DNA of 64,000 bases from Elusimicrobiota bacterium (GTDB taxonomy: Bacteria > Elusimicrobiota > Elusimicrobia > UBA1565 > UBA9628): contig JABEUV010000011.1 in the NCBI GenBank assembly GCA_013044195.1, positions 10,577 through 74,576 of the forward strand, written 5' to 3'. The notes under the pieces are model-generated. The model searched no databases and was not told the DNA's origin. It saw only the letters and a list, made by a program, of their open reading frames with translations. The position numbers were made by a program, and so were the translations under genes. Shown here one piece after another: positions 41,036-63,854 of the stretch (positions are counted from its first letter, which is position 1; each line of letters begins with the position of its first letter).

Positions 41036-41037
41036 CC

Positions 41038-43561: not shown

Positions 43562-43600
43562 TATAATTCCGGTTCTAGCCCGCACCCAGGAGAAACCATC

Positions 43601-44500
43601 ATGGCATTCATGCGCAAACAGGCGGTCGTCGAGGCGACGGACATCAACACTTTGCCCCCCGACGAGGTGGAGAAGCGGATCACGGCCGGCGTCAAGAAAT
43701 ACGCAACCAACGAGGCGAACTTCGCCAAGGCCGACGGCAACACGCCCTACCTGGGCCAGATCGTCGGCATGGGCATCGAGTCGTCCAACCTGGCCGACAT
43801 CACCATGTCCATCGAGCGCCAGTTCCTGACCAAGCTCACCACGAAGGTCCCCCTCGCCGACGGCTCGGCCGAGTACAAGCTGGCCCCCGGCGAACTGGGC
43901 AAGCTGCGCATCCTCGACGGCCAGGACGCGCTGGCCGCGACCCCGGGCCTGTCGGTCAAGATGCTCATGGACCTGGGCCATATGCCGTCCTCTGCGTCGT
44001 ATCTCGATAAAGTCGTCTCGTTCGCCTACATCATGGCCTGCGGCGACGGCTGGAAGATGGCCGACGCGCTCAAGAAGATGACCGCGAAAGCCGAGAAGCT
44101 GGCAGGTGCTGAGCGCGCCGACGCGCTGTCCAACGTCAAGACCCTCGCCGCACAGGCCAAGGACTACGACACTCTGCTGGCCGACGCGGCCAAGCTCTCC
44201 GCCGCCAAGCAGAAGACCTACCTGAGCGACAAGGCCTCCTGCGACGCGCTCGACAACGAACTCAACGTCGTGCTCGACAAGATCAAGGGCCACTCCGGCG
44301 GCGACGCCGCCGCGATCGCCAAGCTGCGCACCGAGGAAGCCGAAGTCCGCACCCGCCTCAAGATGTCCGCGGCGAAGCTGCGCGTCTCCAAGGACGTGGC
44401 CGAGGCCGCCGGTCGGCGCCGACCCATTGAGGACCAGAAAGTCGCCGAGGTCCGCAAGGCCCTCCAGGAGGCCGTCGCCGCGGCCCAGACGCTCGCCTAA
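43601..44500 (+). CDS. Hypothetical protein within the FAS-like cluster
   Basis: 299 aa, Ala/Lys-rich and predicted helical. No motif recognised. Confidence 0.3.
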   Translation: MAFMRKQAVVEATDINTLPPDEVEKRITAGVKKYATNEANFAKADGNTPYLGQIVGMGIESSNLADITMSIERQFLTKLTTKVPLADGSAEYKLAPGELGKLRILDGQDALAATPGLSVKMLMDLGHMPSSASYLDKVVSFAYIMACGDGWKMADALKKMTAKAEKLAGAERADALSNVKTLAAQAKDYDTLLADAAKLSAAKQKTYLSDKASCDALDNELNVVLDKIKGHSGGDAAAIAKLRTEEAEVRTRLKMSAAKLRVSKDVAEAAGRRRPIEDQKVAEVRKALQEAVAAAQTLA

Positions 44501-44501
44501 G

Positions 44502-45908: not shown

Positions 45909-46321
45909 GCGCTACGGCCTCCGTGAAAACCCGATAGCCGCGCGAGATGCGCCGGGCTCTTCTTCCATCGATATGCGCCCGACGGCCTTTACGAGAGGAT
46001 AATACGTCGCTGAACAGGTTCCACGCGTCCAGGAAGGTCACGCAATTCAACGAGCTCTTGCGGGGACGATTTAGCCAAGAAACGAGCGCGTCAATGTCCA
46101 GCGGCTTACGATTGGCCTGCGCAGAAACTTTGAGTCCGTGCTTCGCGGCATAACGACGCCGTCCGCGGAAAGCCGATCGCCCTCCCGCCAAATCAACGCA
46201 CGGATGACCCCATTGAGACGATATTTATACGGGAAATGATTTGCCAGGCCGTCGCGCATCCCTTTCGTCCGAACCATTGAGGCAGTATATCCCCCACGCC
46301 TCCTCTGTGTCGATGCCGAAT

Positions 46322-46367
46322 ATCCCTGTATATTCAGACCTCTAAAATAGACTAAATATACAGGGAT
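46322..46367 (+). promoter_or_regulatory. Perfect 13-bp inverted repeat (ATCCCTGTATATT-N20-AATATACAGGGAT) overlapping the start codon of the XRE regulator
   Basis: Arms at 46322-46334 and 46355-46367. The right arm ends inside the ATG at 46366. AT-rich relative to the surrounding sequence. Confidence 0.4.
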
Positions 46368-46737
46368 GGGACGACAGACTTACGTCGCGCTGCCGGACAG
46401 GCAGGCGCTCAACAAGACGCTGCTGTTCGCCAAAGACGCGCCTACCGCTGCGGGGCAGCCGGCGCGGGTGTATGTGCGCGCGCTCCGGGCCGCGCTGAGG
46501 ATGACGCAAGCACAGCTTGCGCGGCGAGCCGGGGTAGCCAAATCGCACGTGGCGCTCATCGAAGCCGGTACCGCGAACGTCGGCGTCGAAACGCTGCGCA
46601 AGGTCTTCGACGCGATGTTTTGCGACCTTCTGGTCATCCCTAAGCCGCGCAAAAAACCGACGCAGGCGCTGGCGGAGCGCGAACTCGAACGTCTGAGGGA
46701 GCCGCGATATTACGAAAAGCGCGGACCCTGGGATTGA
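46366..46737 (+). CDS. XRE-family (Cro/C1-type HTH) transcriptional regulator
   Basis: LRMTQAQLARRAGVAKSHVALIEAG helix-turn-helix. Confidence 0.75.
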   Translation: MGRQTYVALPDRQALNKTLLFAKDAPTAAGQPARVYVRALRAALRMTQAQLARRAGVAKSHVALIEAGTANVGVETLRKVFDAMFCDLLVIPKPRKKPTQALAERELERLREPRYYEKRGPWD

Positions 46738-46751
46738 GGTAGAATATCGCC

Positions 46752-47702
46752 ATGAATGAGGCATTCCTGGCCGCGGCGCTGGCGGTTTTCCCGGGCGCGG
46801 ACCGGAATATGGCCTTGCCCGATCCGCCGCCCTTGCCGCCGGCGTGGGTCCAGGGCACGTTCGCGGCCGAAGACGGCACGCCGCTGAACTACGAATACCG
46901 TCCCGGCAGCGGCCCGGCCGTGGTGCTGGTGCACGGGCTCGGCATCGGCGCGGACGGCTTCGACGGCTGGCGCGGCTTCTTCGCGGGGCGGCCGCTGATG
47001 ATCTTGGAGCGGCGCGGCTACGGCTCGCCCATGGGCTTGGTCGACGCGACCGACGTGGGCGCCGTCAACCAGGCCGACGTCTCCGCGGCCGTCGACGAGG
47101 CTCTGCGTCTGGACGGCGGCCAACCCGTCGGCGTGCTCGGTTACTCGCTGGGCGCGCTCCTGCTGACCGCGCCGGACCCCGCGCGCGTGCGCTGGCTGGC
47201 GCTGGTCTGCCCGGGCGTGCCGGGCATGGCCGCCGACCTGCCGGCGGCCGAACAGGCCCTGGCCGCGCAGACGCGCTACTGGTATGGAGTGGCGAGCGCC
47301 GGCGGAACGGCCGCGCGGGATTCCTGGCTCATGTCGGTCGTCGCACCGGGAGTCCTGGAACTGGCGACGACCGCGCGCGGGCTGGGCCTCTCGACGGCCG
47401 CCGACGAGGTGACCGCCGATGCGGCTTCGCCCGATTTTCTCAACCTCTACACCGAGGAGTCTCTCTGGGCATACGCCCAGACTCACGGCTTTACGCCCAA
47501 CCCCGGCGTGCCGGTGTTCGTCGGCTACGCCGAGAATGACCTTGTCGTGCCCCCGGCGGCCGTCCAAAGCCGCGTCGGACGGCTGGAATCCCAGGGCGCG
47601 CACGTCAGCGTCGCGCATTGGCCCGGCGACCACCTCGACGCTCTCGCCCATCCGGGACTGGTGCGCTCCGCGCTTGAGTCCTTCGACGCAGGAACTCCAT
47701 GA
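46752..47702 (+). CDS. Alpha/beta-fold hydrolase (possible thioesterase/esterase)
   Basis: VVLVHGLG oxyanion region, nucleophile elbow GYSLG, C-terminal His region (WPGDHLDALAHP). Confidence 0.7.
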   Translation: MNEAFLAAALAVFPGADRNMALPDPPPLPPAWVQGTFAAEDGTPLNYEYRPGSGPAVVLVHGLGIGADGFDGWRGFFAGRPLMILERRGYGSPMGLVDATDVGAVNQADVSAAVDEALRLDGGQPVGVLGYSLGALLLTAPDPARVRWLALVCPGVPGMAADLPAAEQALAAQTRYWYGVASAGGTAARDSWLMSVVAPGVLELATTARGLGLSTAADEVTADAASPDFLNLYTEESLWAYAQTHGFTPNPGVPVFVGYAENDLVVPPAAVQSRVGRLESQGAHVSVAHWPGDHLDALAHPGLVRSALESFDAGTP

Positions 47703-48643
47703 GCCAAAAAGTCTGCGCGCTGTTCGCCGGCCAGTCCGTCCAAGAAACCGGCATGGGCGTCGAATTGCTCAAGCGCCCCACCGCGCGCGCCGTCATCGAG
47801 CGCCTGAAGCCCTCCCTCGGCCAAGACCTGGAGGCCTTGCTGACGACGACGCCCGACGACGACCTGGCCAAGACCTTCAACGCCCAGCGCGCCATTCACG
47901 CCTCCCACGTGGCGCATTGGCTGACTTGGCGCGCGGCTCATCCGGAAGCGGAGCTTGACGGCGCGATCGGGCATTCGATGGGCGTGGTCGCGGCCCTGGT
48001 CGCCGCCGAGGCGCTCACCGTCGAGGACTCCGGCGTCTTCATCGCCGCCCGCGCGAAGGCCTTCGCGGACTGCTGTGCGGCGTTCTCCGAGCCCATGGGC
48101 CTGGCCGCGGTGAGCGCCGACGACTTCAACGAGGTCGCGCAGTCCGTCAATGAGGTCCCCGGGGTTTCCGTCGCTCTGTGGAACACCGTGGGCCGAGGCA
48201 CGCTCGGAGGCACGCTCGCGGCGCTGGAGGCCTATGCCGCCAAGGCGCGCGACGAGGACTGGCCGGTCAAGGTCAAGATATTGAAGGTGGAAGGCCCCTA
48301 TCACACCGCCGCCTTCGCGCCCGCGCAGGTCCCCCTGGGCGCCGTGCTGGCGCGACTGGACGTCCGGCCGCCGAAGGTCCCCGTGTTCATGGGCACCTCC
48401 GGCAGCGCGGAGACGGACCCGGCGCGCATCAAGGAACTGCTGGCCGAGCAAACCGTCGCCTGCGAACGGCATCTCGACGCGGTACGCGCGGCCTACGCCG
48501 CGGGATGCCGAAACTTCGTCGAGGTGTCCTTCAAACCCCAGCCCGTGACCTGGCTGGCGGAGCAGTTGATCGGCGAGGACGGCGCGAAACTGCCCGGCGT
48601 CGAGGGCCGCGCCGTTCCCACCTCGGAACTCCAGGCAGGATGA
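47699..48643 (+). CDS. Malonyl-CoA:ACP transacylase-like acyltransferase (FabD-like AT)
   Basis: ALFAGQSVQETGMG and GHSMGVVAAL (GHSxG). ATGA-coupled to the hydrolase gene. Confidence 0.7.
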   Translation: MSQKVCALFAGQSVQETGMGVELLKRPTARAVIERLKPSLGQDLEALLTTTPDDDLAKTFNAQRAIHASHVAHWLTWRAAHPEAELDGAIGHSMGVVAALVAAEALTVEDSGVFIAARAKAFADCCAAFSEPMGLAAVSADDFNEVAQSVNEVPGVSVALWNTVGRGTLGGTLAALEAYAAKARDEDWPVKVKILKVEGPYHTAAFAPAQVPLGAVLARLDVRPPKVPVFMGTSGSAETDPARIKELLAEQTVACERHLDAVRAAYAAGCRNFVEVSFKPQPVTWLAEQLIGEDGAKLPGVEGRAVPTSELQAG

Positions 48644-49436
48644 TCGACATCATATGGATGATTCGGCTCTCCCAGCCCCGTAAATCCAGAACGCGGCCGA
48701 CAAGACGCACGGGCTCGCCGTAGCTGTCGCGGCACTTGATGGCGTAAATCGGCTGCTCGGCCGGATAGCTCGCCTCGATACGCCCGCAAAACTCACCGAA
48801 CCTGCCTCGGGAAACTATTGTGTCTACGCCGAAGAGGATGACGGGCATTTCTGGAGCAAGAACTTTCGGATTGTTGACGGTTTCGTCGGCGTTGCAGACG
48901 AGAAATCCATTCGATAAGACCCCCATCAAGTCGCTGGCCTCCACGAGAATATGGTCGACGGCCGACACCCCGGGAAGAACGCGGCACTCGTAACCGTTCT
49001 TTCGGCAGTAATTCAGGACATGCAAGCCGTCGCTGAAGACGGCCGGGTGTCCATAGGTCACATATGTCACTTTCTTGCCCTTCTTCAATTCGACGCAGAT
49101 GTCGCGAGCGACGCTTTTGATCTTCTCCTCGTTGCCGAGGGACTCGAATTTCGCGCCATGGAACAAACGAACGTCGACGCAGAAAGTCCGAAGAAACGGC
49201 AGCAACCGCTCTCCGTCTCCGTGCATATAGAAAAGAATCTCGCTGTCCTTGAGCGCCTGGATCGTCCCCAACGTGACATCTTGAGGCCGATCAATTCCCA
49301 CGCCGCATACGGTCAAACATCCGCCCGCGACCGCCGCCTTCGGATTGGACGCGCGCACTCGCCGACTCACAGCAGAAACCCCATGACGTTCTCTCCCTTC
49401 ATGACCCACGCCAGAAAAAATCCAAGAAAAATCCAA
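48531..49436 (-). CDS. Tetrapyrrole-methylase-superfamily SAM-dependent methyltransferase (start uncertain; a GTG near 49358 is possible)
   Basis: N-terminal CLTVCGVGIDRPQDVTLGTIQALKDSEILFY (GxGxGxxD..LT..A...L..AD.(L)Y) and a second motif VTYVTYGHPAVFSDG. 3' end overlaps the FabD-like gene on the opposite strand. Lower GC than neighbouring genes. Confidence 0.45.
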   Translation of the reverse strand: MDFSWIFSGVGHEGRERHGVSAVSRRVRASNPKAAVAGGCLTVCGVGIDRPQDVTLGTIQALKDSEILFYMHGDGERLLPFLRTFCVDVRLFHGAKFESLGNEEKIKSVARDICVELKKGKKVTYVTYGHPAVFSDGLHVLNYCRKNGYECRVLPGVSAVDHILVEASDLMGVLSNGFLVCNADETVNNPKVLAPEMPVILFGVDTIVSRGRFGEFCGRIEASYPAEQPIYAIKCRDSYGEPVRLVGRVLDLRGWESRIIHMMSIILPGVPRWERRGPRRRAVSRRPRRSTAPPARSRAGV

Positions 49437-50755
49437 AAAGCGAACGAAATAGTCGGAGTCAACGGTATCATTTCGACGCCGTTACGGGCGCACCATTCCT
49501 GGAGCGCCTGCGCTTGGCTGGGCGTCAATCCATCCGCATAGAGGCGCGAAAAATGCTCCTCGAAGAATTCGGCGTCCTGCCGCAGACGTTCGATAAAGCC
49601 GGGCGCCAACACGGAATACGACGAGACTTCGCCGATGGCGCTCGGGAGAACTTCATGGTCCCAAAGGCGGACCAGGACCAAGCTCAATCCAAAAAATACC
49701 CCCATCGCGGCAAGCGCCAGAATCGTGCGCTCGACGGCATAAGGAACGGCGATGACCCGCATCACCGCCGCGCACGCCCCGCCCAGAAGCGGCAGCGCGA
49801 TCGTCAAGACGGAAGCGGCGCCGACGCTGCCCGTCAAGACCAGCATCGTCCACCGCGTGCCCAATTGGATGAACATGCTGAATATCGAGAGATCGAGTAA
49901 TATCCGCCACACATCCATCCAATGCGTCGGCGGACGAATAACGACCAACGCGACGCCCAAGACCCCGAGGAGCAACCGGCAATAATTGGCCCCGATCACT
50001 ACGGAAAGTCGGTTCCATAAGACGAATACGACCCCCCAAAACATGGTGAAGAGTATCGGCGAGCTAAAGAAGCCTTTTAAGTAATAGGAAAACAGCGACA
50101 GGGCGAGCATCTGCAGCCCCTGCAGAGCCGCAAAGCCCGCGAAAGCGCCCGGCTGTGCCGCGATCGAACGAATGGATCGAGCCGCTTTTATGCGCCAGGA
50201 CTCGGGCGTACCGATTGCTTCGCGCAGGCTGTCGTAAATAAAATGAACTGCTTTTCCCCATCCCAACTGAATAAAAAAATGGCGTCGATGGCTCAGGCGC
50301 GTTGAATAAACATAATGCAGCGCCCTCAGGAAGACCGCGATGCTCGCCGGGATAAACGTGTTGATCAGCGCGATCAGAAACAACCGCCGCCCATAACTAG
50401 GCCCCCCCAAAGTCGTCAGCGGGTACAAGGCGGCAAGCAGAAGAAATAATTTCGCATCGCCCGCGGGCCAGACGCCGAACCACCATAAAGCGCCCGCCGC
50501 CGTCGCGCATAGAAAAACATTCGACAAGGCCTCCCGGTAAAATATTCCTCGGGGGAACACCTCGATCCAGCGCAATCCGCCGAGGATGCTCATCACCAGC
50601 AGGATCAAATACGCGCACGCGATGATCCTGGCGCTGGAACGCAGGAATTGATTGCGTATTTTTTGATGGGTGTAGTCGTTCCAACCCACCACGATCCAAA
50701 GATAAAAGAAAAAGGCGGCCATCGCGGCCTGTACGGCCGTCAATGCGGCGCTCAT
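49367..50755 (-). CDS. Polytopic membrane protein with prepilin-peptidase (A24)-like GDAKL motif, function unknown
   Basis: About 12 hydrophobic helices. WWFGVWPAGDAKLFLLLAALYP resembles the second catalytic-Asp motif (GGDVKL) of type IV prepilin peptidases. Start set at Met 50755 (ATGA-coupled to the upstream TPR gene). Lower-GC gene. Confidence 0.4.
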   Translation of the reverse strand: MSAALTAVQAAMAAFFFYLWIVVGWNDYTHQKIRNQFLRSSARIIACAYLILLVMSILGGLRWIEVFPRGIFYREALSNVFLCATAAGALWWFGVWPAGDAKLFLLLAALYPLTTLGGPSYGRRLFLIALINTFIPASIAVFLRALHYVYSTRLSHRRHFFIQLGWGKAVHFIYDSLREAIGTPESWRIKAARSIRSIAAQPGAFAGFAALQGLQMLALSLFSYYLKGFFSSPILFTMFWGVVFVLWNRLSVVIGANYCRLLLGVLGVALVVIRPPTHWMDVWRILLDLSIFSMFIQLGTRWTMLVLTGSVGAASVLTIALPLLGGACAAVMRVIAVPYAVERTILALAAMGVFFGLSLVLVRLWDHEVLPSAIGEVSSYSVLAPGFIERLRQDAEFFEEHFSRLYADGLTPSQAQALQEWCARNGVEMIPLTPTISFAFWIFLGFFLAWVMKGENVMGFLL

Positions 50756-53700
50756 GCGGCCAAACGCGACTCGCCTGCAAAGAGGCCTGGAGCGACGCTC
50801 ATCGCCCGCTCCCTGTATTTTGCGGCGGCGCTTGCGCGCCGCAGCTTCTCCAGGCACGCCGACGCGCCGATCAGCGCCCACGGATCCGCGGCGTCCAGCG
50901 ACAGCGCCTTCATAAACGACGATAAGGCCGGCCGCCAACGCTTTTGTTCGCAGTAGGCCCGCCCTTGCCACGTCCACGCATCTTGATAAGCGTCATGGGC
51001 GCCGAGGACTTGCGCGAATTCCGCGAGCGCTCCGCGGACGTCCCCACGAACCAGCTTCAGTTCGCCCAGCCACGCGCGCGCCCAGTAACAGTCGGCGTCG
51101 AGCTCGACGGCATGATCCAAATCGCGCCGCGCGGCCTCCCAGCGTTCTCTCTTTCGATGAATTCCTCCGCGCCACGCATAAACCCAGGCGTAGCGGGAAT
51201 CTCGCCAAACATGAGGCGGATCCGCTCCGAGAAAATCATAAGCGCAGGAGCAGTTCCCATCAAGTTTGACGGCGCGCCGCACCAGGTCGAAACCGGCTTT
51301 GATTCGTCCCAGTTCGCGGTTGATCTCCCCGCAAAGCGCGACGGCCCAGGCGCACGTCGGCTCAAGATCGATCGCCGCGCGCGCGGCCGCCTCGGCCTCC
51401 CGCAGACGCCCGTCCCTGCGCAGCGCGTCGGCCTCCCAGCCGCGGGCTTTGGCGTCGCTCGGGTCGAGACGCGCTGCCCGACGAAAATCCAACAATGCGC
51501 CCGCGCTGTCCCCATTCTGCCGGTGCGCCTTCCCCCGAACGACATAGGCCCACGCAAGCTCCGGCTGCGCCGCGATGGCGTCCGTCGCCGAGGCAACCGC
51601 CTCGGGAAGGCGTCCGAGATTACGAAGCGCTTCGCTCGCGAGCATGTGGGCGGGCGCGGGGTCATCCGGTCTCAGTTTCAAGGCCGACAGCGCGTCATCC
51701 AAGGCGCCACTGAAATCGCCTGAAATACGGCGGCCCGCCCCGCGCTTGCACCAAAGATCGGGCCGTCGCGGCGAAAGTTCGAGCAGGCGATCAAGATCGG
51801 CGACATGCTTGTCATAGTCGCCCGAGCAGCGGTAGGCCTCCGCGCGAAAGCGCAGGGCTTCTTCGCAACTACCGTCGACGCGAAGGATTTCATCGCAGGT
51901 CGCCGCCGCCTCCAAATGAAGCCCATTTTCCGCCGACCGGCGAACGTGCCGCAGGGCTTTCAAGACCAAATCGGCAGACGCCGCCGCGCCCAGCTTGGCG
52001 AACCTCCGCGCGACGCGCAGTTCCTCCCGCGTCAAGCGATCCGCCCCGCTCAATGCCTGCGCGAAATTCGAACGCGCCTCTCCCCATCGTCCCTCGCGTT
52101 CGTTCAGGACTCCAAGCCGGAAGTTGACGCGCGGATCGTCTCGTTGCGCCGCGAGCGCCCGCTCCAAATCCTCTCGAACACCGACGTCGTTATTGCATCG
52201 CTGCCGCAGAGCCGCGCGCGCAAGCATGGCGGCGACATGATTGCGGTCGATGGCCAATGAAGCCCCGAAGTCCTCCTCGGCCTCTTTTGCCAAGCCCAGG
52301 CGATCTTCGGCTTCCCCTTTCCAAAGGAAAATCCATGACGTCATTCGATTCAATTCGACGGCGCGCCTCAAGTCCGTCAGCGCGCCGGCCGAGTCCCCTA
52401 AAAGATGGCGAGCGCGGCCGCGCCACGCATAAGCGTAGGCATACGAAGGCTCAAGCCTCAACGCTCGATCGCAATCCTTGAGAGCGCGTCTTATCGATCC
52501 CAATTCCAGCAACGCGCCGCCTCGCCAAGCCCGCACCCAGCCCAGTCCTCCGTCAAGCGCGAGCGCTCGATCCATATCCGCGACGGCGCCCGCGTAATCG
52601 GCTTTCCGGAGTTTAGCCTCGCCTCGCCATGCCCACGCCCACGAGTTTCGCGGGTGGGCTCGTATTTCCTCGTCCAATTGCGCCGACGCGGCTGCGAACT
52701 GATCGGGCGTGCCGCCGCACCAAGAATATTTCGGATCAAGGCGATGGGCCGCCTCTAATTTTTCCAGAGCCGCGCCGACGTCGCCGAGCTGGCGAAGCGC
52801 GAGGGATTGTTCTTGGAGCGTCCAAGCATGCCGGGGGTCCAAAGACGAAGCCAGCGCAAAGTCGACCAGCGCCTGCGCGGGCCGGCCCAAACCCCTTTTT
52901 GCGCCGCCGCGCCACGCATAACCCAGTTCGTAGTCCGGGTCAAGCCGCAAGCCTCGATTCAAATCGCAAAGTGCTCCCTTCTGATCGCCCCGCAGCCGCT
53001 TGATCTCGCCGCGCCAACAGAGTATCCAGCCGCATGAAGGCTTCAGCAACACCGCCCTGTTCACCGCTTCCATCGCCGCCGACGAGTCGCCCTGCATCAA
53101 CCGCGAGCGCGAAAGATACGCCCAGCCGTAGGCGCAGTCCGGCTTGAGCTCCACCGCCTTCTCCAGATCCCGTCGCCCGCCGTTTTGGTCGTTGACCTCC
53201 GGCGCGCGCTTGTAATCGCCGCGGTACACATACATCCAATATGCGCGCGGATGCCGCGCCAAATAGCGCGACACCGCCATGATTTTCTCCGCGACGGTGA
53301 CCGCTCCGGAGCTTCGGCCTCCGGCGTTCTGAAAATAACCGACTCCTTCGTCGGCATAAACGGCGCTTTCGCAATCGGAAAGATATCCGCGCAGATCGCC
53401 GCGCTCGATGCGGCAGGCGCTTCGAAACGCAAGCAAGAACGCGGTGTCGGGCTCCTCGGCGAGCGCCCGGTCGAAATAGCCCTCCGCCTGTTTTCTCTCG
53501 CCCGCGTTGTAAAGCGCCATGCCCGCGGCGACCAGGGCCGGAACGCAGCGCGAATCAATTTCCAGGGCCTTCTGCAAATCAGCCAGCGGCCGGCGGACGT
53601 CTGCGGAACGGGCGTCCATGAATTCCACGGTTTTCGCGATTCCTCGGAAAGCCCGCCACAGAGCCCGGCGGGGCGCCAGCGCGATCGCCCGGTCTATGCC

Positions 53701-54045
53701 GTCGTACGACCGAGAGGCTCCAGGTTCGCACGGCTCCGCGGTCCAACGCCATGCCCACGCCGCGTCGCAGCCGCGATCCAAGCGCAACGCCGCGTCGAAT
53801 TCCCTCCGGGCTTCGCGGGCGCGTCCCAAATAATGAAGGATCCGCGCTCGCGCGACGCATTCCTCCGCGGACGATCCGCGCGAACGCTCGAGGGCGCGCT
53901 CATAGCGCGGTCGATAGCGGACCCCGTGACGCCGCAGAATATAGCGCGAGGAGCGCGACACCAGCTTCGACTGCCAGAGCGCGATGAGGCGATCAGCCCC
54001 CAGCTCGCGCAGGAGCGCCGCAGCACTCGATCCCATTTCAGCCAT
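50752..54045 (-). CDS. Giant TPR-repeat protein (~1100 aa, WRG-type TPR family)
   Basis: More than 20 TPR-like 34-aa units with a recurring AWAWRGEAK...A..D..RALALDP pattern. Start trimmed to Met 54045 to avoid overlap with the radical SAM gene. Confidence 0.75.
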   Translation of the reverse strand: MAEMGSSAAALLRELGADRLIALWQSKLVSRSSRYILRRHGVRYRPRYERALERSRGSSAEECVARARILHYLGRAREARREFDAALRLDRGCDAAWAWRWTAEPCEPGASRSYDGIDRAIALAPRRALWRAFRGIAKTVEFMDARSADVRRPLADLQKALEIDSRCVPALVAAGMALYNAGERKQAEGYFDRALAEEPDTAFLLAFRSACRIERGDLRGYLSDCESAVYADEGVGYFQNAGGRSSGAVTVAEKIMAVSRYLARHPRAYWMYVYRGDYKRAPEVNDQNGGRRDLEKAVELKPDCAYGWAYLSRSRLMQGDSSAAMEAVNRAVLLKPSCGWILCWRGEIKRLRGDQKGALCDLNRGLRLDPDYELGYAWRGGAKRGLGRPAQALVDFALASSLDPRHAWTLQEQSLALRQLGDVGAALEKLEAAHRLDPKYSWCGGTPDQFAAASAQLDEEIRAHPRNSWAWAWRGEAKLRKADYAGAVADMDRALALDGGLGWVRAWRGGALLELGSIRRALKDCDRALRLEPSYAYAYAWRGRARHLLGDSAGALTDLRRAVELNRMTSWIFLWKGEAEDRLGLAKEAEEDFGASLAIDRNHVAAMLARAALRQRCNNDVGVREDLERALAAQRDDPRVNFRLGVLNEREGRWGEARSNFAQALSGADRLTREELRVARRFAKLGAAASADLVLKALRHVRRSAENGLHLEAAATCDEILRVDGSCEEALRFRAEAYRCSGDYDKHVADLDRLLELSPRRPDLWCKRGAGRRISGDFSGALDDALSALKLRPDDPAPAHMLASEALRNLGRLPEAVASATDAIAAQPELAWAYVVRGKAHRQNGDSAGALLDFRRAARLDPSDAKARGWEADALRRDGRLREAEAAARAAIDLEPTCAWAVALCGEINRELGRIKAGFDLVRRAVKLDGNCSCAYDFLGADPPHVWRDSRYAWVYAWRGGIHRKRERWEAARRDLDHAVELDADCYWARAWLGELKLVRGDVRGALAEFAQVLGAHDAYQDAWTWQGRAYCEQKRWRPALSSFMKALSLDAADPWALIGASACLEKLRRASAAAKYRERAMSVAPGLFAGESRLAA

Positions 54046-54053
54046 CGCGCCTA

Positions 54054-55049
54054 TCAGCCGTCCCGCAGAAGGCGCCGCCGCAGGGCGTCGGCCGACTTCC
54101 GACTGGGACGCAGCTCGCCGTCGCCGTGGAGAAGTACGTAGTCGCGCCGCGGCCCCGGGCAGAGTTCCACAAGCGTACAGCCCGTGCAGCGCGGGGTCTG
54201 GGCCTTCTCGTTGATGTAGCGCCGCTCGAGGCGCGCAAGCTTCCATGCGTCGATCGAGTCCTCCTCGAAACCCGGGGTCGCGCACAGCGGGAAACCGTCG
54301 GTCATGAAGCGGATGCCGCAGCGGCGCAGCCGGGCCCACGACTCCAGAAGATAAGGCTCCATGTCGGTCAGCGTCGGCACCAGGAATTTTCTCTGCTTGA
54401 CGTAGCCGAGGACCTTCACGATGTTGAATTCGACGAAGAAAATGCCCGGGAACTCCTCCCGAACGAACCGCGCGTAGTCGGGCATGATCTTGTAATTGAA
54501 CTTATTGACGACGACGTGCAGGCGGACCTTCGCGCCGCCCGCCGTTTCGATCAGATTCTTGACCGCCTTCACGCGCCGGTGAAAGTATCCCCGCGTCTGG
54601 GTGATCGCGTCGTAGAGACGGTCTATGTGCGCCGGGAAATTCACGTTAAAGACGTCAAGGCCGGCCGTGACGAGCTCTTCGATGCGATCCGTGTTCTCGA
54701 ACACCGCCGCGTTCGTGCACAGAACGGTCTCGCGCACGCCGTTTTCCTTCGCAAAGCGCACCCATTTCGGCAGGTCCTTCGAAAGCGTCGGCTCGCCCCC
54801 CTCGAAGGAGATCGTGTGCTTGTTGGCCAGTATCAACCGGCGGATGTCGTCGTCCGAGGTGAGCCGGTATTCATTGACCGAGGAGCAGAAAACGCAATCG
54901 ATATTGCAATGCGTGTTCAGGTAAATGTTCGGGTCGGTCTCCGGATAATACCAATCCGGTTTCCCGCCCGACTCGTCGAGGGGAACACAGCGCTCGACAT
55001 GCTCAAGCGGGCCCCGAGTTCCGCCGCCGTCGCCGATTTTCTCGTTCAT
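54054..55049 (-). CDS. Radical SAM enzyme with C-terminal auxiliary Cys cluster (SPASM/twitch-like)
   Basis: CNIDCVFCSS (Cx3Cx2C). Glycine-rich ISFEGGEPT SAM-binding motif. C-terminal PLCATPG...RCTGCTLVELCPG Cys cluster. ATGA-coupled to the upstream TPR gene. Confidence 0.8.
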   Translation of the reverse strand: MNEKIGDGGGTRGPLEHVERCVPLDESGGKPDWYYPETDPNIYLNTHCNIDCVFCSSVNEYRLTSDDDIRRLILANKHTISFEGGEPTLSKDLPKWVRFAKENGVRETVLCTNAAVFENTDRIEELVTAGLDVFNVNFPAHIDRLYDAITQTRGYFHRRVKAVKNLIETAGGAKVRLHVVVNKFNYKIMPDYARFVREEFPGIFFVEFNIVKVLGYVKQRKFLVPTLTDMEPYLLESWARLRRCGIRFMTDGFPLCATPGFEEDSIDAWKLARLERRYINEKAQTPRCTGCTLVELCPGPRRDYVLLHGDGELRPSRKSADALRRRLLRDG

Positions 55050-56788
55050 GGCGCCCGCTCGCCGCCGCTTGGCCGCGAACCAACATAGTGTGCGCCTACG
55101 TCGGCCGAATTGCAAGGGTCTTCCATCCGGCCGCCGGACGCCGCGCTGCGGGCCTCCCGCCTCCAGGCAAGCCACTGCGCCGTACGCGGCCCGCGCAGGA
55201 ATCCTTCCTCCAAATCGGCCAGCCCGTCATCATAGTTGCCCGCGAGAAAACGAACCCTGCCCCGGTATGAGAAAAAGCCCCCCAGACCGGGGCCGATCCT
55301 CAGCGCCCTGGTAAAATCATAGTCGGCTCTTTCCAGATCGTTGACCTCGAGCCGCAGAACGCCGCTCCATGCCCAAAAAGTGGCCTTCTCTTTTTTTAGC
55401 GCCAAACACAAATCCATATCCTGCAAGGCCTCTTTCTTCCAGCCCATTTTCAGCCGAGCGCGCGCCCGCCGGCTGCGCGCCCACGCGTGATCCGGTGAAA
55501 TTCGGACGGCCTCATCCAAGTCTCGCAAGCCGTCGGCCGCACGGCTTTGATCTCCCTGCGACGACGTCGCGCCGCGGAAAGCAAGAGCCCACGCGTTGCC
55601 GGGATACGTCTCGACCAGGCGCTCCATGTCCTCATGCAGCGCCGTTTTTTCTCCCGCGGCGCAAGCACGCCTTCCATTTTTCAGCGTCGGGCTCCACAGC
55701 GTCGCGGGAGAAGCTGGGAAGGCTTTGTCGAAATCCTCGGCCGCCCGCGCGAAGCGTCCGGACTTCAGAAGCGCCTCCGCGCGTAGAAGATAAAAGTGCT
55801 CGTCAAAGAACTTTCTGCCCCTCGCCGCCCGCCGCAGGCACGCCAAAGCCTCGCCGACTCGCCATTGGGCGTTCAAGAGCCGCGCCTTCCACACGAGAGC
55901 GTTATAGTTTCCGGGCTGCGACCGCAACGTCCGATCCATCCAGCCGAGAGCCCCGGCATAATCGCCCCGCTTGCGTATCGTCTCTCCAATCCAGGCATTC
56001 AGGACGGACAAGCGCGAATCCATGCGCATCGCCCTTTTCATATCGTCGCAGGCGGACTGGAAAAGACCGGCCTTGCCGCGCTCGCGCCCGCGGCAAGCAT
56101 ACGCCCAAGCGCTCGAGGAGAATCTCTCGACCATCTCCCGGCAGACTTTCAGGGCCTCGTCGCCGCGCTGAAGTTCCGAGAACGTATCTCCGAGAAGCGA
56201 ATAGGCCCAGTCGTACGAGGGGTCGATCTCCAGCGTTCTTTGAAGATCCTTCATGCCCGCCTCTTCCTGGTCCAAGCTGTTCAAGAATTGCGACCGCCAT
56301 GCGTAGACGTCTCTATTTCCCGCATCGAGAATCTCCGCGGCCGCAAAATCGGACAACACAGCGCGGAATTCCGGCGCCAGCGGAAAGATCGAGGATCGAT
56401 GCCTCGCTTGACGCAAAGACACGAGCAACGCCCCGCGGGCGCGGGCTCTCCAGAGAAATCCCCAAGCCCAGCCGGGATCGAGACTCACGGCGCGCTCTCC
56501 GGCCGCCAGGGCGCGCCTTGTACGGAAAAACAGCAGCTCCACGGCGGCCTTCAAGCCCCAATACTCCGCCCGTCGGCGACTCGCCCGTCCGACCGAATCC
56601 AGAACCTTACTCAGCTTCAGGTAAAGCCTTGCGTCCGGCGAACCTCCGGATTGGAAGTGCCGCAAGGGATCGAAGCGAACCGCATGCTTCGCCGCGGAAT
56701 GATCGGCAACACCGGCGACATCAAGCACGCAGCCCAAACTGCGCTCAAAATCACCGTTGCGGGCGAATAGAAGCATCCGTTCGGTCAT
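55046..56788 (-). CDS. TPR-repeat protein (WRG-type family)
   Basis: Multiple TPR units (AYACRGRERGKAGLFQSACDDMKRAMRMD, WAWSGVLRLEVNDLERADYDFTRALRIGP). Start taken at Met 56788 adjacent to the Sel1 gene stop. Confidence 0.7.
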   Translation of the reverse strand: MTERMLLFARNGDFERSLGCVLDVAGVADHSAAKHAVRFDPLRHFQSGGSPDARLYLKLSKVLDSVGRASRRRAEYWGLKAAVELLFFRTRRALAAGERAVSLDPGWAWGFLWRARARGALLVSLRQARHRSSIFPLAPEFRAVLSDFAAAEILDAGNRDVYAWRSQFLNSLDQEEAGMKDLQRTLEIDPSYDWAYSLLGDTFSELQRGDEALKVCREMVERFSSSAWAYACRGRERGKAGLFQSACDDMKRAMRMDSRLSVLNAWIGETIRKRGDYAGALGWMDRTLRSQPGNYNALVWKARLLNAQWRVGEALACLRRAARGRKFFDEHFYLLRAEALLKSGRFARAAEDFDKAFPASPATLWSPTLKNGRRACAAGEKTALHEDMERLVETYPGNAWALAFRGATSSQGDQSRAADGLRDLDEAVRISPDHAWARSRRARARLKMGWKKEALQDMDLCLALKKEKATFWAWSGVLRLEVNDLERADYDFTRALRIGPGLGGFFSYRGRVRFLAGNYDDGLADLEEGFLRGPRTAQWLAWRREARSAASGGRMEDPCNSADVGAHYVGSRPSGGERAP

Positions 56789-59367: not shown

Positions 59368-61728
59368 TCAACCTTCCCCGCGCGCGCCGGAATCCTCGAT
59401 GGCCCGCGCCGCCAGGAGGTCCGCCTTCGCGTCCGCCAAAGCCCCCAGAAGCATGGCCGCCTTCGCGCGCACGATCAGCGCCTCGGATTGCCGCGGATTG
59501 ATCCGCAGCGCGGCCGCGGCGTCGGCGCGCGCGCCAAACGCGTCGCCGCTGGCGAGGCGAAGCTTGGCCCGCAGCAGCCGCACGCGATCCTCGATCATGG
59601 CGCGCTCCACGCCGGACTCGAACTCCTCGCGCAGCGCCTCAAGGCGCGAGCCCTCGGCCGGGCTCCTCGACAGGGCGCACAGACGCAAGGCCTTGTCGAG
59701 ATCCGCCGCGGCGTCGGCTGGGCGGCCGAGGTGGCGCCGGGCCTCGCCGCGCAGCGCGTAGGTCCACGGTCCCGGAGCTCCCGCGGAAATCGCGCGATCA
59801 AGCGAGGCTTGCGCGGCGGCCGGATCGCCGCTGCGCAGTTCGGCCTCTCCGCGGCGGAAGTGCCCCCACGCGTCGTCCGCCCTTGGAACGGGCCCAGGAG
59901 GCGTCGGAACGTCGAGGGCCTGAGTCCATTCGACCGCGCCGAGCACGGCCAGGTCCTTGAGAAGGCGAAAAACCTGCGCGTCCAGGACGTCGCGGGGCAA
60001 CGGTGAGCGCCGCGACAACTCGCGCTTGATCGCGCCGACCGAACGTTTGCCGTCCGTCAGCGCGAGCGCGAGGGCATACGAACGAGGCAATATCCGGCGC
60101 GGATTGGCCGCGTCGCCGTCGGCGTCGAGGCCTTCGGCCTTGACGATGCGGTAGCGTCGCGCGGGCAATAGCCGACCGTCCCCGGAGACCGGCAGAAACG
60201 TCGTCTGCTCCTCGATTCTCTTGGCCAAGCGAGGGATCCAGGAATCCGGGATTTCACGGCGCGCGGCCTCGTCCTCGGCGCGGCGCAACCCCTCGTCGCG
60301 CGACGGCTCGGCCTTCAAGAACCCGGTCTCGACGACGGCGAGAATCTGCCGCGTCCAGTTCTTCAGTTCCAGCTTGGTGCCTTCCCACTGCCAGGAATGC
60401 TCGGTTCCGCTGGAGCCGAAGAGCAGGGTCTGGGAGGTGTAGGCGCGCTCGAAATAGTAGGTCAGCCCGGCCGCGACGGCCACGAAGGCGGTTTTGTCAT
60501 CAAGATCGATCGGCGACGCCGCGCCCAGCGCTTTGCGCGCCTCGGCCCGCCATGCGCGCGCGTTCGGATCGTGACGGTACCAAAAGCGTACGAGCGTCGA
60601 GAAAGAACCCGCGACCTCCCCACAGAAGCGGTCGTAGTCGTTCCACAGCAATCCGCGAACCTCCGCGTCGGCCTCGCGGCGCGAGGACAGCCACGTGTAG
60701 GCCGCGCGATGCCCCGACAGATGCGCCATCATGACGCCCGACGACAGCAGCGGGTCGAGAAAGAACGCCGCGTCGCCCGCGGCCAGCCAGCCCTCGCCGC
60801 AGGCGCGTGCGTTGCGGTAGGACCAGTCGGCGGCCGTGAAAAAATCCTTGCCCGGAGCGCGAGGGTCCACGCCGGCCAGCAGTTGCGCGCCGTCAAGCAG
60901 CGGCGCGATCTCCGTGCACCGCCCCAGCGCCTCGAAGAAATACGCGCGGAAATCCTTGCCCCGCGGGTGGGACTTCACGAACGAAGCCTTGGAGACGAGT
61001 CCGACCGAGACCATCTCCCGCGAAAGAGGAATATACCAGAACCAGCCCTCCGGCACGGAGCAGATGAAGATTTTGGTCTTGTCGGGATGTCCCGAGAACT
61101 CGAACTTCCACTTCGCGCCCTTGTAGTAGGCGTAACCGGCCGTGTTCTTGAGCTCCGGGTCGAACTCGCGCACGCCGCGCTGCGCCGACAGAAATCCGGA
61201 CTGCCCCGAGCAGTCGGCCAGCGTGCCGCACCGCAGCGTGCGCCGGCGTCCGCCCTTCTCGACGACCACGCCGACGAAGCGCCCGTTCTCCTCGACGGCG
61301 GAGAGCGCGCGCCAGCCGAAGCGGACTTCCGCGCCAAGCTCGGCGGCGTGGTCGAGCAGGATTTTATCGTACTTCGAGCGCAGAACCTGCCAGGAGAACT
61401 CCGCGTCGAGCATGCGCCCATACTTCTTGACCATCTCCAGATTCAGGTTGTTGAAGTCCGCGTCCCACGGCGCGCGCTCGTCGCCCCAGACGAAAACGAC
61501 GCCCATCTTTCGCGGGAATCCCCCCGCGTCGATCTTGTCCTGCACGCCGAGTTCCTTCAAGACGGGGATCGCCCCCGGAAGAAGCGACTCGCCGACGTGA
61601 TGGCGGGGAAACTCGTCCTTCTCCAAGACGAGTATTCGCGCCGTCGAATCGTGCTTGCGCGCGATGCCCGCCAGCGTGCTTCCCGCGGGGCCGCCGCCCA
61701 CGACGATCATATCCCAGGTTGTCGTCAT
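59368..61728 (-). CDS. Flavin-dependent halogenase-like FAD monooxygenase fused to C-terminal TPR repeats
   Basis: N-terminal FAD fold (IVVGGGPAGS), halogenase-signature GWFWYIPL (WxWxIP) and distal FxxPxxSxG-like FLDPLLSSGV. C-terminal ~280 aa of TPR (WTYALRGEARRHLGRPADAAADLDKALRL). Confidence 0.65.
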   Translation of the reverse strand: MTTTWDMIVVGGGPAGSTLAGIARKHDSTARILVLEKDEFPRHHVGESLLPGAIPVLKELGVQDKIDAGGFPRKMGVVFVWGDERAPWDADFNNLNLEMVKKYGRMLDAEFSWQVLRSKYDKILLDHAAELGAEVRFGWRALSAVEENGRFVGVVVEKGGRRRTLRCGTLADCSGQSGFLSAQRGVREFDPELKNTAGYAYYKGAKWKFEFSGHPDKTKIFICSVPEGWFWYIPLSREMVSVGLVSKASFVKSHPRGKDFRAYFFEALGRCTEIAPLLDGAQLLAGVDPRAPGKDFFTAADWSYRNARACGEGWLAAGDAAFFLDPLLSSGVMMAHLSGHRAAYTWLSSRREADAEVRGLLWNDYDRFCGEVAGSFSTLVRFWYRHDPNARAWRAEARKALGAASPIDLDDKTAFVAVAAGLTYYFERAYTSQTLLFGSSGTEHSWQWEGTKLELKNWTRQILAVVETGFLKAEPSRDEGLRRAEDEAARREIPDSWIPRLAKRIEEQTTFLPVSGDGRLLPARRYRIVKAEGLDADGDAANPRRILPRSYALALALTDGKRSVGAIKRELSRRSPLPRDVLDAQVFRLLKDLAVLGAVEWTQALDVPTPPGPVPRADDAWGHFRRGEAELRSGDPAAAQASLDRAISAGAPGPWTYALRGEARRHLGRPADAAADLDKALRLCALSRSPAEGSRLEALREEFESGVERAMIEDRVRLLRAKLRLASGDAFGARADAAAALRINPRQSEALIVRAKAAMLLGALADAKADLLAARAIEDSGARGEG

Positions 61729-63854
61729 TTGAGAGCAGTCCCGCCGCCCAGGTCGAGAATGCGCGCGCGCAGCCAGCGCCCCGCCGCGTCCTCCGGATCC
61801 AGCGCCGCGTCGAGAGAGCGCGCGGTCTCCTCAAGCGCGCCGCGCGCGTCGCCGCAGGACAACTTCAGCCACGCGAGTACTCGATAAAATCCGGCCTCAC
61901 GGGAGGCCGGCCTTTCCTGCGCGCGCGCCAGGGCTCCGCGCGCGTCCGCGCGCAGCAGCGCCGCCGCGCACCCGCGCAGGCCGCAAGACCGTGCCGTCCG
62001 CGCCAAGGCCTCCGGCGCGAAGGACGCCGCCGGATCTTCGACGCGGCGCAGCGCAAAGGCCCTGCGCGGATCGGGCCTCCGGCCCGCGCGGCGGCACGCC
62101 AGAACGTATAAAGCCAGCGGCTGCCGAGGATTTCGGCGCAGCGCCTCTTCAAGCGCCCGCGACGCCTGCCGGCCGCGGCCCGCACGGGCGAGAAGAAAGC
62201 CCTCCATGGCCGCGTCCGCGTCGGAAGGGCCGCCGCGCCCGTACGCGGCCAGAGCCTCCTCCCATGCGCCGCAGCGCGCCAGGGACTCGGCCAGCCGCAG
62301 GGAAATCCAACGGTCCCGCGGGTGGAGTTCGAGCGCGGCGCAATAGGCCGCCGCGGACTCGACTGGACGACCGACCTCCAGCAAGGCCCGCCCTCGAAAC
62401 GCGTGCGCGGGACCGCAGTGCGGCTGCAGGCGCAGGGAACGCTCGAGCTCGGCCAGCGCCGCGCGGACGCGGCCCTGCTCGAGCAGGCACGCTCCCCGTC
62501 CCGCGTGCGCCCAGGACAGCCGCGCGTCCAGACGCAGAGCCGACTCGAAATCGGCCCGAGCCTCGCCGACGAGGCCTAGGCGCCGGCGTGCCTCGCCGCG
62601 CCAAAGACGCGCCCACGCGTCCCGCGGAGCGAGCGCGACGGCCCGATCAAGATCGTCGATCGCGCGCCAATAATTCTGCAGCAGAAGCTCCGTCTGGCCC
62701 CGCCAGGCCAAGGCCCACGCGGCCCGCGGCCGCCGCTCCAGGTAGCGGTCCAGATCCCGCCGCGAGCGCAGAGCCGCGGGATTGGGGTGAGACATGCTGA
62801 TGCGATGCTCGATCCAGACGCCGGAGCGGTCGACGGCCGCGGCTTCCCGCATGATCCGCCCCGCCTCGTCCCAGCGCTTGAGGCTCATTAGCGCGCCCGC
62901 CAAGGGATACAGCGTCGTCGGGTAGTACGCATTGAGGGCGCGCGCCTTCATCAGTAGCGCTGCGGCACGACGCGTCTGCCCCTGCTCGGCCAAGGACACG
63001 CCCAGCCACGACCAGCCGCGGTCGTAATCGGGCAGAAGCTTGATCGACGCCCGCAAATCCGCGAGAGCCCGCGGCGCGCGTTTGAGGACGAACATGGCCC
63101 GGCCGCGCCAGGAGAGGGCGAAGCCCGAGCGCGGCGCGAGCGTCAGCGCCCGATCAAGATCGGCCACGAGCGTGCGGTCGCGCAGGTCCGCCTTCGCGCG
63201 CGCCAAGAAGAGCAAGGGCAGTTCCCCCGACGCGTCGAGCCGCGCCGCTTGGCCGAACGCCGACACCGAGGCGCGAAACTCCGCCAGATACCACAGGCAT
63301 ACGCCGCGAAACACGAGCGGCCAGGACCAGTCCGCAGCAAGCGAACTCGCCGCGTCGAATTGCGCGATCGCGCGCACGTAGCGACGCCGCATCTCCCAGG
63401 CCATCCCCAAACCCATGCGCGCCCAGAGCTGATCGCCGTCGAGCGCGAGCGCGGCCTCAAAATCCGCGATGGACGCCGCTCCAAGGCGCCGCGAGCCCCA
63501 GCAGCGCTCGGACCGCAGGAAGCCCCTCAAGATCAGGAAGGCGGGCTGCCGCGGATCGAGGCGGATCGCCTCGTCCAGACGCCCCCGCGCCGCCTCGGAC
63601 CAGCCCGGCCCCGTCGGCGGCCGCGCGCGGGGCCGGCCGGTCTCCCCGCCGGGGCCGAGGCGGAACTCGCGGCCGATGCGCCGCAGTTCGCCGAGGCCGC
63701 GCAGATCGTTCTGCCGATAAAAAAGGAGAGAGTGAGCGATGTAGCCGCGAAAGATCTCCGCAGCGAAAGTTCCGGAGCCTTCCGCGAAAAATGCGTCGAG
63801 CGGGTCAGGCTTGGGGACCAAGAAGGGCCTCCGCCCGCTTGCGCTGCTCTTCAT
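61725..63854 (-). CDS. TPR-repeat protein (WRG-type family)
   Basis: 709 aa. Repeated units (WALAWRGQTELLLQNYWRAIDDLDRAVALAP, WARLWRGEARRRLG...). ATGA overlap with the halogenase gene. Confidence 0.7.
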   Translation of the reverse strand: MKSSASGRRPFLVPKPDPLDAFFAEGSGTFAAEIFRGYIAHSLLFYRQNDLRGLGELRRIGREFRLGPGGETGRPRARPPTGPGWSEAARGRLDEAIRLDPRQPAFLILRGFLRSERCWGSRRLGAASIADFEAALALDGDQLWARMGLGMAWEMRRRYVRAIAQFDAASSLAADWSWPLVFRGVCLWYLAEFRASVSAFGQAARLDASGELPLLFLARAKADLRDRTLVADLDRALTLAPRSGFALSWRGRAMFVLKRAPRALADLRASIKLLPDYDRGWSWLGVSLAEQGQTRRAAALLMKARALNAYYPTTLYPLAGALMSLKRWDEAGRIMREAAAVDRSGVWIEHRISMSHPNPAALRSRRDLDRYLERRPRAAWALAWRGQTELLLQNYWRAIDDLDRAVALAPRDAWARLWRGEARRRLGLVGEARADFESALRLDARLSWAHAGRGACLLEQGRVRAALAELERSLRLQPHCGPAHAFRGRALLEVGRPVESAAAYCAALELHPRDRWISLRLAESLARCGAWEEALAAYGRGGPSDADAAMEGFLLARAGRGRQASRALEEALRRNPRQPLALYVLACRRAGRRPDPRRAFALRRVEDPAASFAPEALARTARSCGLRGCAAALLRADARGALARAQERPASREAGFYRVLAWLKLSCGDARGALEETARSLDAALDPEDAAGRWLRARILDLGGGTALK

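Follow-up and report, generated by a model that had tools for sequence, protein, structure and literature searches.

A gene for a radical S-adenosylmethionine (SAM) protein was analysed in a 64,000-nucleotide (nt) stretch of DNA from an Elusimicrobiota bacterium (assembly GCA_013044195.1, contig JABEUV010000011.1, positions 10,577 to 74,576), referred to here as the window. The gene lies on the minus strand between genes for tetratricopeptide repeat (TPR) proteins. Judged from profile alignments, its product is a divergent enzyme of the HxsC lineage with an HxsC-type cysteine motif near its C-terminal end, and it is best read, by analogy with HxsC, as a maturase of peptides or proteins.

The radical SAM gene and its C-terminal cysteine motif

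The longest minus-strand open reading frame (ORF) covers 54054-55175 and begins with GTG, while an ATG at 55049 gives a product of 331 amino acids (aa). This product is 100% identical to a deposited protein of an Elusimicrobia metagenome-assembled genome (MAG) labelled 'radical SAM protein'. The following features were identified:

54054..55049, minus strand: HxsC-like radical SAM protein, 331 aa (PF04055; sub-threshold HxsC4/HxsC; hhalign; AlphaFold2 (AF2) model)
54930..55049, minus strand: N-terminal extension of about 40 aa, confined to the window-type subfamily and predicted to be disordered
54885..54908, minus strand: CX3CX2C radical SAM cluster motif CNIDCVFC (residues 48-55; C48, C52 and C55)
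54159..54284, minus strand: HxsC-type auxiliary-cluster motif C256-X31-C288-X2-C291-X5-C297-P-G (invariance in 33 homologs; HxsC alignment)

Membership of the radical SAM superfamily is given by the PF04055 match (54.8 bits against a cut-off of 29.5, E 1.7e-14). An initial annotation of the sequence had recognised a radical SAM protein with a canonical CxxxCxxC motif, a C-terminal cluster of cysteines beginning at CATPG, and a gene placed between TPR genes with ATGA coupling to one of them, and each of these points was borne out. CNIDCVFC is the sole CX3CX2C motif among the window's ORF segments of at least 150 aa, and no second radical SAM protein was found in the window by this search. In the alignment of homologs, GGEP, N113 and H141 are invariant. 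The C-terminal cysteines stand in the contexts DGFPLC256ATPG and C288TGC291TLVELC297PG; C256, C288, C291, C297 and G299 are invariant among 33 aligned homologs (down to 23% identity), and R301 is kept in at least 90% of these sequences. At the upstream junction, the end of the 580-aa TPR gene (GCG CCA TGA) is overlapped by the ATG of the radical SAM gene, and at the downstream junction the 1097-aa TPR gene starts 8 nt past the radical SAM stop codon.

The AF2 model of the protein (overall predicted local distance difference test score, pLDDT, 88.9) shows the usual partial barrel and no beta-hairpin in the C-terminal region (residues 252-301). Residues 1-32 have a pLDDT below 50 and are predicted to be disordered. 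They belong to an extension whose pattern RGP-E-V-RCVP-D-G-P-WYYP is common to the aligned window-type sequences P0001, P0002, P0003 and P0006 and is missing from relatives at 45-50% identity.

HxsC and the His-Xaa-Ser (HXS) system were reportedly treated by Haft and Basu in 2011. HxsC (TIGR03977) is the radical SAM maturase of this system, for which an anti-phage role has been described (Nat Commun 2026, PMC13128918). It possesses two iron-sulfur (Fe-S) motifs, and double mutants of each lose anti-phage defence, with HxsA processing lost or lowered; for the second motif, the CxxC mutant C342A/C345A showed lowered HxsA processing and abolished defence (PMC13128918). HxsC binds HxsD, and the effect of canonical HxsC on HxsA has been reported only as a gain of 8 Da (on SHRSS) and N-terminal processing (PMC13128918).

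The best NCBIfam models for the window protein were HxsC4 (NF038332; 79.5 bits, cut-off 500) and HxsC (TIGR03977; 73.6 bits, cut-off 267.9), the HxsC match spanning residues 41-299 with the Cys motif included. Comparison of the window-family profile with canonical HxsC (hxsC genes annotated by PGAP on one Mesorhizobium and one Nostoc plasmid) using hhalign gave a probability of 99.0% and an E-value of 2.9e-18 over 250 columns. In this alignment C256 pairs with the Cys of 'HQLC', and C288, C291 and C297 pair with 'CEGCTKKDEC', the four-Cys motif thus aligning with QLC...CEGCTKKDECGG of canonical HxsC. CX3CX2C and CX2CX5C lie 240 aa apart in the window protein and 241 aa apart in both canonical HxsC proteins, and CX2CX5C was found to be present in 93 of 102 HxsC-like ORFs of the fetched loci. 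These alignments indicate homology to canonical HxsC that includes the C-terminal Cys motif: some 250 residues, CX3CX2C, LC...CX2CX5C-G at matching spacing and the absence of a SPASM domain are common to both. The motif is assigned as an HxsC-type auxiliary site because of the Cys alignment, the spacing and the reported second Fe-S motif of HxsC. A second Fe-S site is very likely, since the four cysteines are invariant in the family and are shared with HxsC, in which the CxxC matters functionally.

SPASM domains are marked by seven cysteines, CX9-15GX4C ... CX2CX5CX3C ... C, which hold two auxiliary clusters, while the twitch domain holds a single auxiliary cluster in a truncated SPASM fold with a beta-hairpin. 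The initial annotation had suggested an auxiliary Fe-S domain of this SPASM or twitch kind, to be checked with TIGR04085 and PF13186, and kinship with QhpD, sactisynthases and anSME. Neither profile matched the whole protein (Pfam at E<=0.01; the best 25 NCBIfam matches at E<=0.1), and the isolated 84-aa C-terminus had no Pfam match at E<=1; profile searches thus gave no support to a SPASM/twitch identity. The SPASM families StsB (a sactipeptide maturase) and PqqE scored only 34-37 bits, none near cut-off, and the QhpD-type 'quino_hemo_SAM' was not among the best 25 NCBIfam matches. Against the seven SPASM cysteines, the family conserves C256, C288, C291 and C297 only, so that the signature is reduced to its CX2CX5C core, the X3C position being occupied by the conserved R301 with no further Cys downstream; with only four C-terminal cysteines, one auxiliary cluster at most could be accommodated. 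The protein resembles the SPASM/twitch maturases (anSME, QhpD, sactisynthases, SkfB and BtrN) in having an auxiliary Cys cluster C-terminal to the radical SAM barrel and in its probable polypeptide substrates, and the first three cysteines of CX2CX5CX3C equal its CX2CX5C, with a fourth ligand added upstream. It differs from them with regard to SPASM model matches and the hairpin, which is absent from the AF2 model. The four cysteines would fit a single cluster as in twitch domains, with fold matches covering the core only. Searches of solved structures in the PDB (sequence profile and Foldseek) recovered generic radical SAM cores, namely GDGT-MAS, BlsE, SkfB and viperin, at template modelling (TM) scores of about 0.5, and no PDB match to the C-terminal domain was obtained by either method. 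The second Fe-S site proposed earlier can thus be kept as very likely, while its SPASM character and the kinship with QhpD and sactisynthases are not supported.

Relatives, operon and recurrent partners

The radical SAM gene is part of an operon of co-directional minus-strand genes with tight spacing and overlaps, of which the following lie in the window:

61725..63821, minus strand: TPR protein, 698 aa
59368..61728, minus strand: flavin-dependent halogenase-like enzyme with a C-terminal TPR domain, 786 aa
58290..59306, minus strand: Cys-rich exported protein with a signal peptide, 338 aa
56785..58203, minus strand: Sel1-repeat protein, 472 aa (PF08238, E 4.6e-57)
55046..56788, minus strand: TPR protein, 580 aa, its stop overlapping the radical SAM start (ATGA)
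50752..54045, minus strand: large TPR protein, 1097 aa, overlapping the membrane protein gene
49367..50755, minus strand: polytopic membrane protein, 462 aa, with an N-terminal region tentatively likened to prepilin peptidases (A24)
48531..49409, minus strand: TP_methylase-fold protein, 292 aa (PF00590, 60.4 bits)

The radical SAM gene stands between the 580-aa and 1097-aa genes of this list. Upstream, beyond the window end, the operon continues with two complete TPR genes (685 and then 676 aa) and with a 486-aa TPR ORF that is cut by the contig end 5.5 kb out. Beyond the radical SAM protein and its two partners described below, the TPR/Sel1 complement of the operon amounts to about six proteins. 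For the halogenase-like enzyme, PF04820 scored 88 bits and sub-threshold matches were obtained to CmlS (172 bits), QhpG (100 bits) and LodB/GoxB; the motifs GGGPAG, WFWYIP and KMGVVFVW are present, the last containing a candidate catalytic Lys. The TPR part is missing from its L089 ortholog (587 aa), and the WxWxIP motif from its L001 ortholog. The TP_methylase-fold protein shows weak similarity to precorrin methylases, and no tetrapyrrole genes are found in the operon. G+C content is 0.62-0.65 between 48000 and 58000, against 0.64-0.72 for most of the remaining window, and the TPR genes have a weaker bias in G+C at third codon positions; the region may be a horizontally acquired or fast-evolving island.

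The family of the radical SAM protein is small: a search of 5.8 billion proteins yielded 36 clusters, and GTDB species genomes contain about 28 loci. Its members derive nearly all from Elusimicrobiota MAGs. Close relatives (P0002-P0007) are 73-84% identical, with the N-terminal extension of about 40 aa in those aligned, and both of their fetched loci (L006 and L001) share the window context. Gene order in L006 is identical to that of the window, with a 1095-aa TPR gene at the position of the large TPR gene and a 567-aa TPR gene between it and the membrane gene. In L001 the radical SAM gene is followed directly by the Cys-rich gene, two B12-radical SAM genes, the large TPR gene and the membrane gene; four WelO5-like genes and a halogenase-like gene lie upstream, and acyltransferase_3 and GDSL lipase genes also occur at this locus.

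Relatives at 30-50% identity, almost all from Elusimicrobia, were located in multi-radical SAM Hxs-like clusters with (SHG)n peptides. L009/L015 contains a bona fide HxsB, which scores 475 bits where 370 are required, along with three or four HxsD-like genes, another pair of HxsC4-like paralogs and a peptide of 101 aa with an (SHG)n end; L004 resembles it, with an HxsB-like gene at 299 bits. Across the loci surveyed, HxS-repeat ORFs were identified in nine distinct loci and HxsD-like genes in eight, and relatives at 45-50% identity are surrounded by HxsB, HxsD and HxS-repeat genes. HxsC4, an additional HxsC paralog that occurs rarely, in expanded Hxs systems, is the top-scoring model for the window protein, and relatives of that protein occur in such multi-paralog clusters. 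The window subfamily is regarded as a separate branch, since its L004 member P0015 obtains 81 bits with the HxsC4 model, against 104-159 bits for the adjacent paralogs in L004 and L009. HxsA-like precursors of about 100 aa were also observed (L004:1168-1470, L009:7694-7999 and ORFs in L018, L019, L022, L024, L028, L029 and L030), with a conserved leader K-x-L-x-x-F-L-x-S-E-E-G-K, a hydrophobic segment and 8-16 C-terminal Ser-His-Gly repeats, two copies standing in tandem in L018.

Two additional loci, L088 and L089, were reached through the membrane protein. L089 contains TPR genes, an HxsC-like radical SAM gene that belongs to a different subfamily (26% identity) and shares the four-Cys motif, a halogenase-like gene (41%), a Cys-rich gene, the large TPR gene (56% identity) and the membrane gene (55%), while L088 contains Cys-rich, large TPR, membrane and TP_methylase genes. 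Over the window, L001, L006, L088 and L089, the Cys-rich, large TPR and membrane proteins form an invariant core (five of five loci), accompanied by an HxsC-like radical SAM protein in four of the five and by a halogenase-like enzyme likewise in four. In L001, L088 and L089 the gene immediately upstream of the membrane gene encodes an ortholog of the large TPR protein (56-64% identity), and TP_methylase-fold orthologs follow the membrane gene in L006 and L088.

The membrane protein was linked to the radical SAM family in further loci. Its N-terminal part is 33-37% identical to the product of the gene immediately after the radical SAM relative in L004 and L009, a family-specific hidden Markov model (HMM) placed a member in the same locus as radical SAM relatives in 14 surveyed loci, and the two genes are directly adjacent in L004, L009, L022 and L024. 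Among 42 homologs, D27 (W-x-D-x4-KIRN), G99-D100 (WPAGDAKLF), K102 and N132 are invariant; PF01478 (Peptidase_A24), matched by 7 of the 42 (best E 6e-6), is the only family to recur among them. These motifs and weak Pfam matches tentatively suggest a prepilin-peptidase-like protein. The type IV prepilin and preflagellin peptidases (PF01478, MEROPS A24) have in common with it an invariant Asp in the first loop and an invariant G-D; they differ in that this family is predicted to have about eight more helices and carries a soluble domain at its C-terminal end, most members fall under detection, and no pilin-like substrate is evident at the locus.

The second partner is the Cys-rich protein, which the initial annotation had pointed to as a nearby secreted protein and which was indeed located 3.2 kb upstream of the radical SAM gene in the same co-directional string. 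Its family has 15 representatives in 1.84 billion proteins (exhaustive search), with an even set of about ten invariant or near-invariant cysteines (13-sequence profile), and orthologs occur in L006, L001, L088 and L089; a word-indexed search with the protein returned the self match only. Its profile aligned with those of Cys-rich exported proteins from Hxs-like loci (hhalign 95.4%, E 1.8e-8), a result that required deeper alignments, an earlier comparison of the same groups with shallow profiles having given a non-significant 8%. In L004 (57-1178) an HxsD-like N-terminal domain, a transmembrane segment and a Cys-rich exported domain form a single protein, while in L009 (6387-7669) HxsD and the Cys-rich protein have a gene each, and these two neighbouring genes overlap.

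Proposed maturation role and alternatives

A role in the maturation of peptides or proteins, which the initial annotation had also proposed, is the best reading by analogy, since the closest characterised relative of the window protein is HxsC and its own relatives lie inside HxsA/B/D clusters. In its specific form, this reading describes a cytoplasmic HxsC-lineage radical SAM maturase of polypeptides with an electron-relay auxiliary cluster, acting before the membrane and Cys-rich pair, and the balance of evidence leaves it at about even chances. The first cluster would reductively cleave SAM, and the resulting 5'-deoxyadenosyl radical would take a hydrogen from a residue of the polypeptide substrate. 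The auxiliary [4Fe-4S] cluster, predicted to be fully Cys-ligated, would serve as an electron relay and not as a substrate-binding site. Cytoplasmic TPR/Sel1 proteins may present the substrate as a scaffold replacing HxsD, on which the disordered N-terminal 40 residues of the enzyme could possibly dock, and the flavin halogenase-like and TP_methylase-fold enzymes may contribute extra modifications. The product would then pass to the membrane protein, putatively a leader peptidase of the GxGD type, and to the disulfide-rich periplasmic partner for processing or export. Of this scheme, the motifs, the homology and the co-location are shown, and the cluster content, substrate class, scaffold role and protease activity are inferred.

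Several observations weigh against this reading. The scores lie far under the HxsC and HxsC4 cut-offs, so that HxsC equivalog membership is not supported, and the HxsC N-terminal domain of about 115 aa is missing. Gene context is also unlike that of HxsC, the operon being composed of TPR, Sel1 and halogenase-like genes without HxsA, HxsB or HxsD in the window; no HxS-repeat ORF, HxsB or HxsD was detected by regular expression and HMM searches in the window or in L001 and L006. A precursor gene hidden in the operon was considered and rejected because the visible intergenic gaps, at most about 90 nt, are too small. L088 has neither a radical SAM gene nor a halogenase in the 9 kb visible upstream, and the radical SAM enzyme is not obligatory to the Cys-rich/TPR/membrane module, since L088 keeps the module with no such gene in view. 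The membrane protein of the window has no Pfam match itself, and its model (pLDDT 87) gave no PDB fold match with Foldseek, a PDB profile search being empty too, for which reasons the A24 reading is tentative. Finally, fatty acid synthase (FAS)-like genes beside the cluster in two loci are equally compatible with a non-peptide substrate. With PADLOC, generic viperin-level matches to the radical SAM core only were obtained and nothing for the neighbouring genes, so that no defence role is assigned to the operon.

The FAS-like genes form a set convergent to the operon:

37960-48643, plus strand: type II FAS/aryl-polyene-like gene set, comprising enoyl reductase-like, KAS III-like, double FabA, ketosynthase (KS), a 299-aa protein, an acyltransferase plus phosphopantetheinyl transferase (PPTase) fusion, a helix-turn-helix (HTH) protein, an alpha/beta hydrolase and a FabD-like protein

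A serious, although rather unlikely, alternative is that the radical SAM and halogenase-like enzymes tailor a lipid or polyketide-like molecule made by these genes, with the TPR proteins as unrelated scaffolds. Such a role would agree with the same adjacency in L089, in which the 299-aa protein is 86% identical against only about 55% for the operon proteins, with a FabD-like gene near the cluster in L088, and with the WelO5-like, acyltransferase_3, GDSL lipase and two B12-radical SAM genes of L001, which are typical small-molecule tailoring genes. The best PDB match of the radical SAM protein by both sequence and fold is the lipid enzyme GDGT-MAS, and the best family match of the halogenase-like enzyme is CmlS. 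However, the GDGT-MAS match is restricted to the generic radical SAM core (TM-score about 0.55), whereas both the distinctive C-terminal motif and the top-ranking profiles are those of HxsC, a protein maturase, and more distant relatives lie in peptide clusters without FAS genes. The FAS-like genes are moreover on the opposite strand, the 3 kb past the methylase gene in L006 hold a TPR gene and a 458-aa gene that are not FAS-like, and the shared adjacency may only mirror the common ancestry of related genomes.

It also seems improbable that, following the direction of the initial annotation, the radical SAM protein acts like QhpD/QhpC or anSME and introduces cross-links, thioether or other, into the neighbouring Cys-rich protein ahead of its export. 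The Cys-rich gene is retained with a radical SAM gene in the window, L006, L001 and L089, is immediately downstream of it in L001 and L007, and belongs to a tiny family confined to such clusters; the sub-threshold QhpG match of the operon flavoprotein recalls the QhpD/QhpG/QhpC trio. The enzyme is, however, not a SPASM protein, unlike QhpD, anSME and sactisynthases, and a signal peptide with an even number of about ten conserved cysteines is what would be expected of disulfides in an exported protein. In the L004 fusion, the Cys-rich domain is predicted to lie outside the cell, beyond the transmembrane segment, and the HxsD domain, which would bind the radical SAM enzyme, inside. In L088 the Cys-rich gene is present with no radical SAM gene in view, and the (SHG)n peptides of Hxs-like loci offer an alternative substrate. 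The Cys-rich protein and the enzyme are conserved together, but the signal peptide, the even Cys count and the topology of the HxsD fusion make a disulfide-bonded extracytoplasmic partner more likely than a thioether substrate.

MoaA likewise carries a C-terminal Cys cluster, with the motif CX2CX13C. That the protein is a housekeeping enzyme such as MoaA, placed among TPR genes by chance, is hardly credible: the MoaA models (TIGR02666/TIGR02668) are next best among NCBIfam models and one source names a homolog 'MoaA', but their 49-65 bits are far under the cut-offs of 231-325, the motif is CX2CX5C with an upstream Cys, the gene was always found within multi-radical SAM or TPR clusters in the loci surveyed, and a family of 36 clusters, nearly all from Elusimicrobia, is too rare for a housekeeping enzyme. 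A best match to a housekeeping family with no SPASM domain had been named in the initial annotation as the outcome that would count against it; the SPASM domain is indeed absent, while the best models are those of the maturases HxsC4 and HxsC, with MoaA second.

A maturase of the HxsC lineage is thus the preferred reading. A more far-reaching version of it, held to be rather unlikely, is an Elusimicrobia-specific and undescribed pathway of protein maturation and export. In this pathway an HxsC-derived radical SAM enzyme without HxsA/B/D, a TPR-fused halogenase and a TP_methylase-fold enzyme would modify a large protein on a multi-TPR/Sel1 scaffold, followed by a new GxGD intramembrane protease and a disulfide-rich periplasmic partner. 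If this were true, the membrane and Cys-rich pair would represent an ancestral processing or export module of expanded Hxs systems. A literature search on Elusimicrobia radical SAM proteins with tetratricopeptide repeats found nothing.

HxsC is among the few widespread radical SAM maturases whose chemistry is still unknown, and the anti-phage role of the HXS system was only shown in 2026. The present comparison shows a four-Cys C-terminal motif that, across the alignments, appears to define the whole HxsC lineage, and it shows expanded Hxs clusters in Elusimicrobia that contain numerous HxsC paralogs and (SHG)n peptides. It also shows two partners not noted previously, the A24-like membrane protein and the Cys-rich exported protein, which in one case is fused to HxsD, and one HxsC branch redeployed into a TPR/halogenase operon without HxsA. 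These loci provide natural "minimal" and "rewired" versions of HxsC for asking what such enzymes recognise and do, and the membrane protein is a candidate leader peptidase for Hxs-type substrates. Practical importance is modest pending a substrate, the HxsC link and the two recurrent partners being useful leads.

Further observations

A conserved protein of about 145 aa with the motif DPRFQELIEIVNLAVQ... was found beside TPR genes in L089 (13764-14198) and L088 (14320-14763), adjoining a second HxsC-like radical SAM gene in L089. Elsewhere in the window, an 806-aa ORF on the minus strand (28906-31326) has a strong coding bias and no Pfam match at E<=1e-5. Near it lie genes for a glutamyl-tRNA reductase (26966-28348), a subtilase (31508-32776) and an outer-membrane efflux protein (35166-36398).

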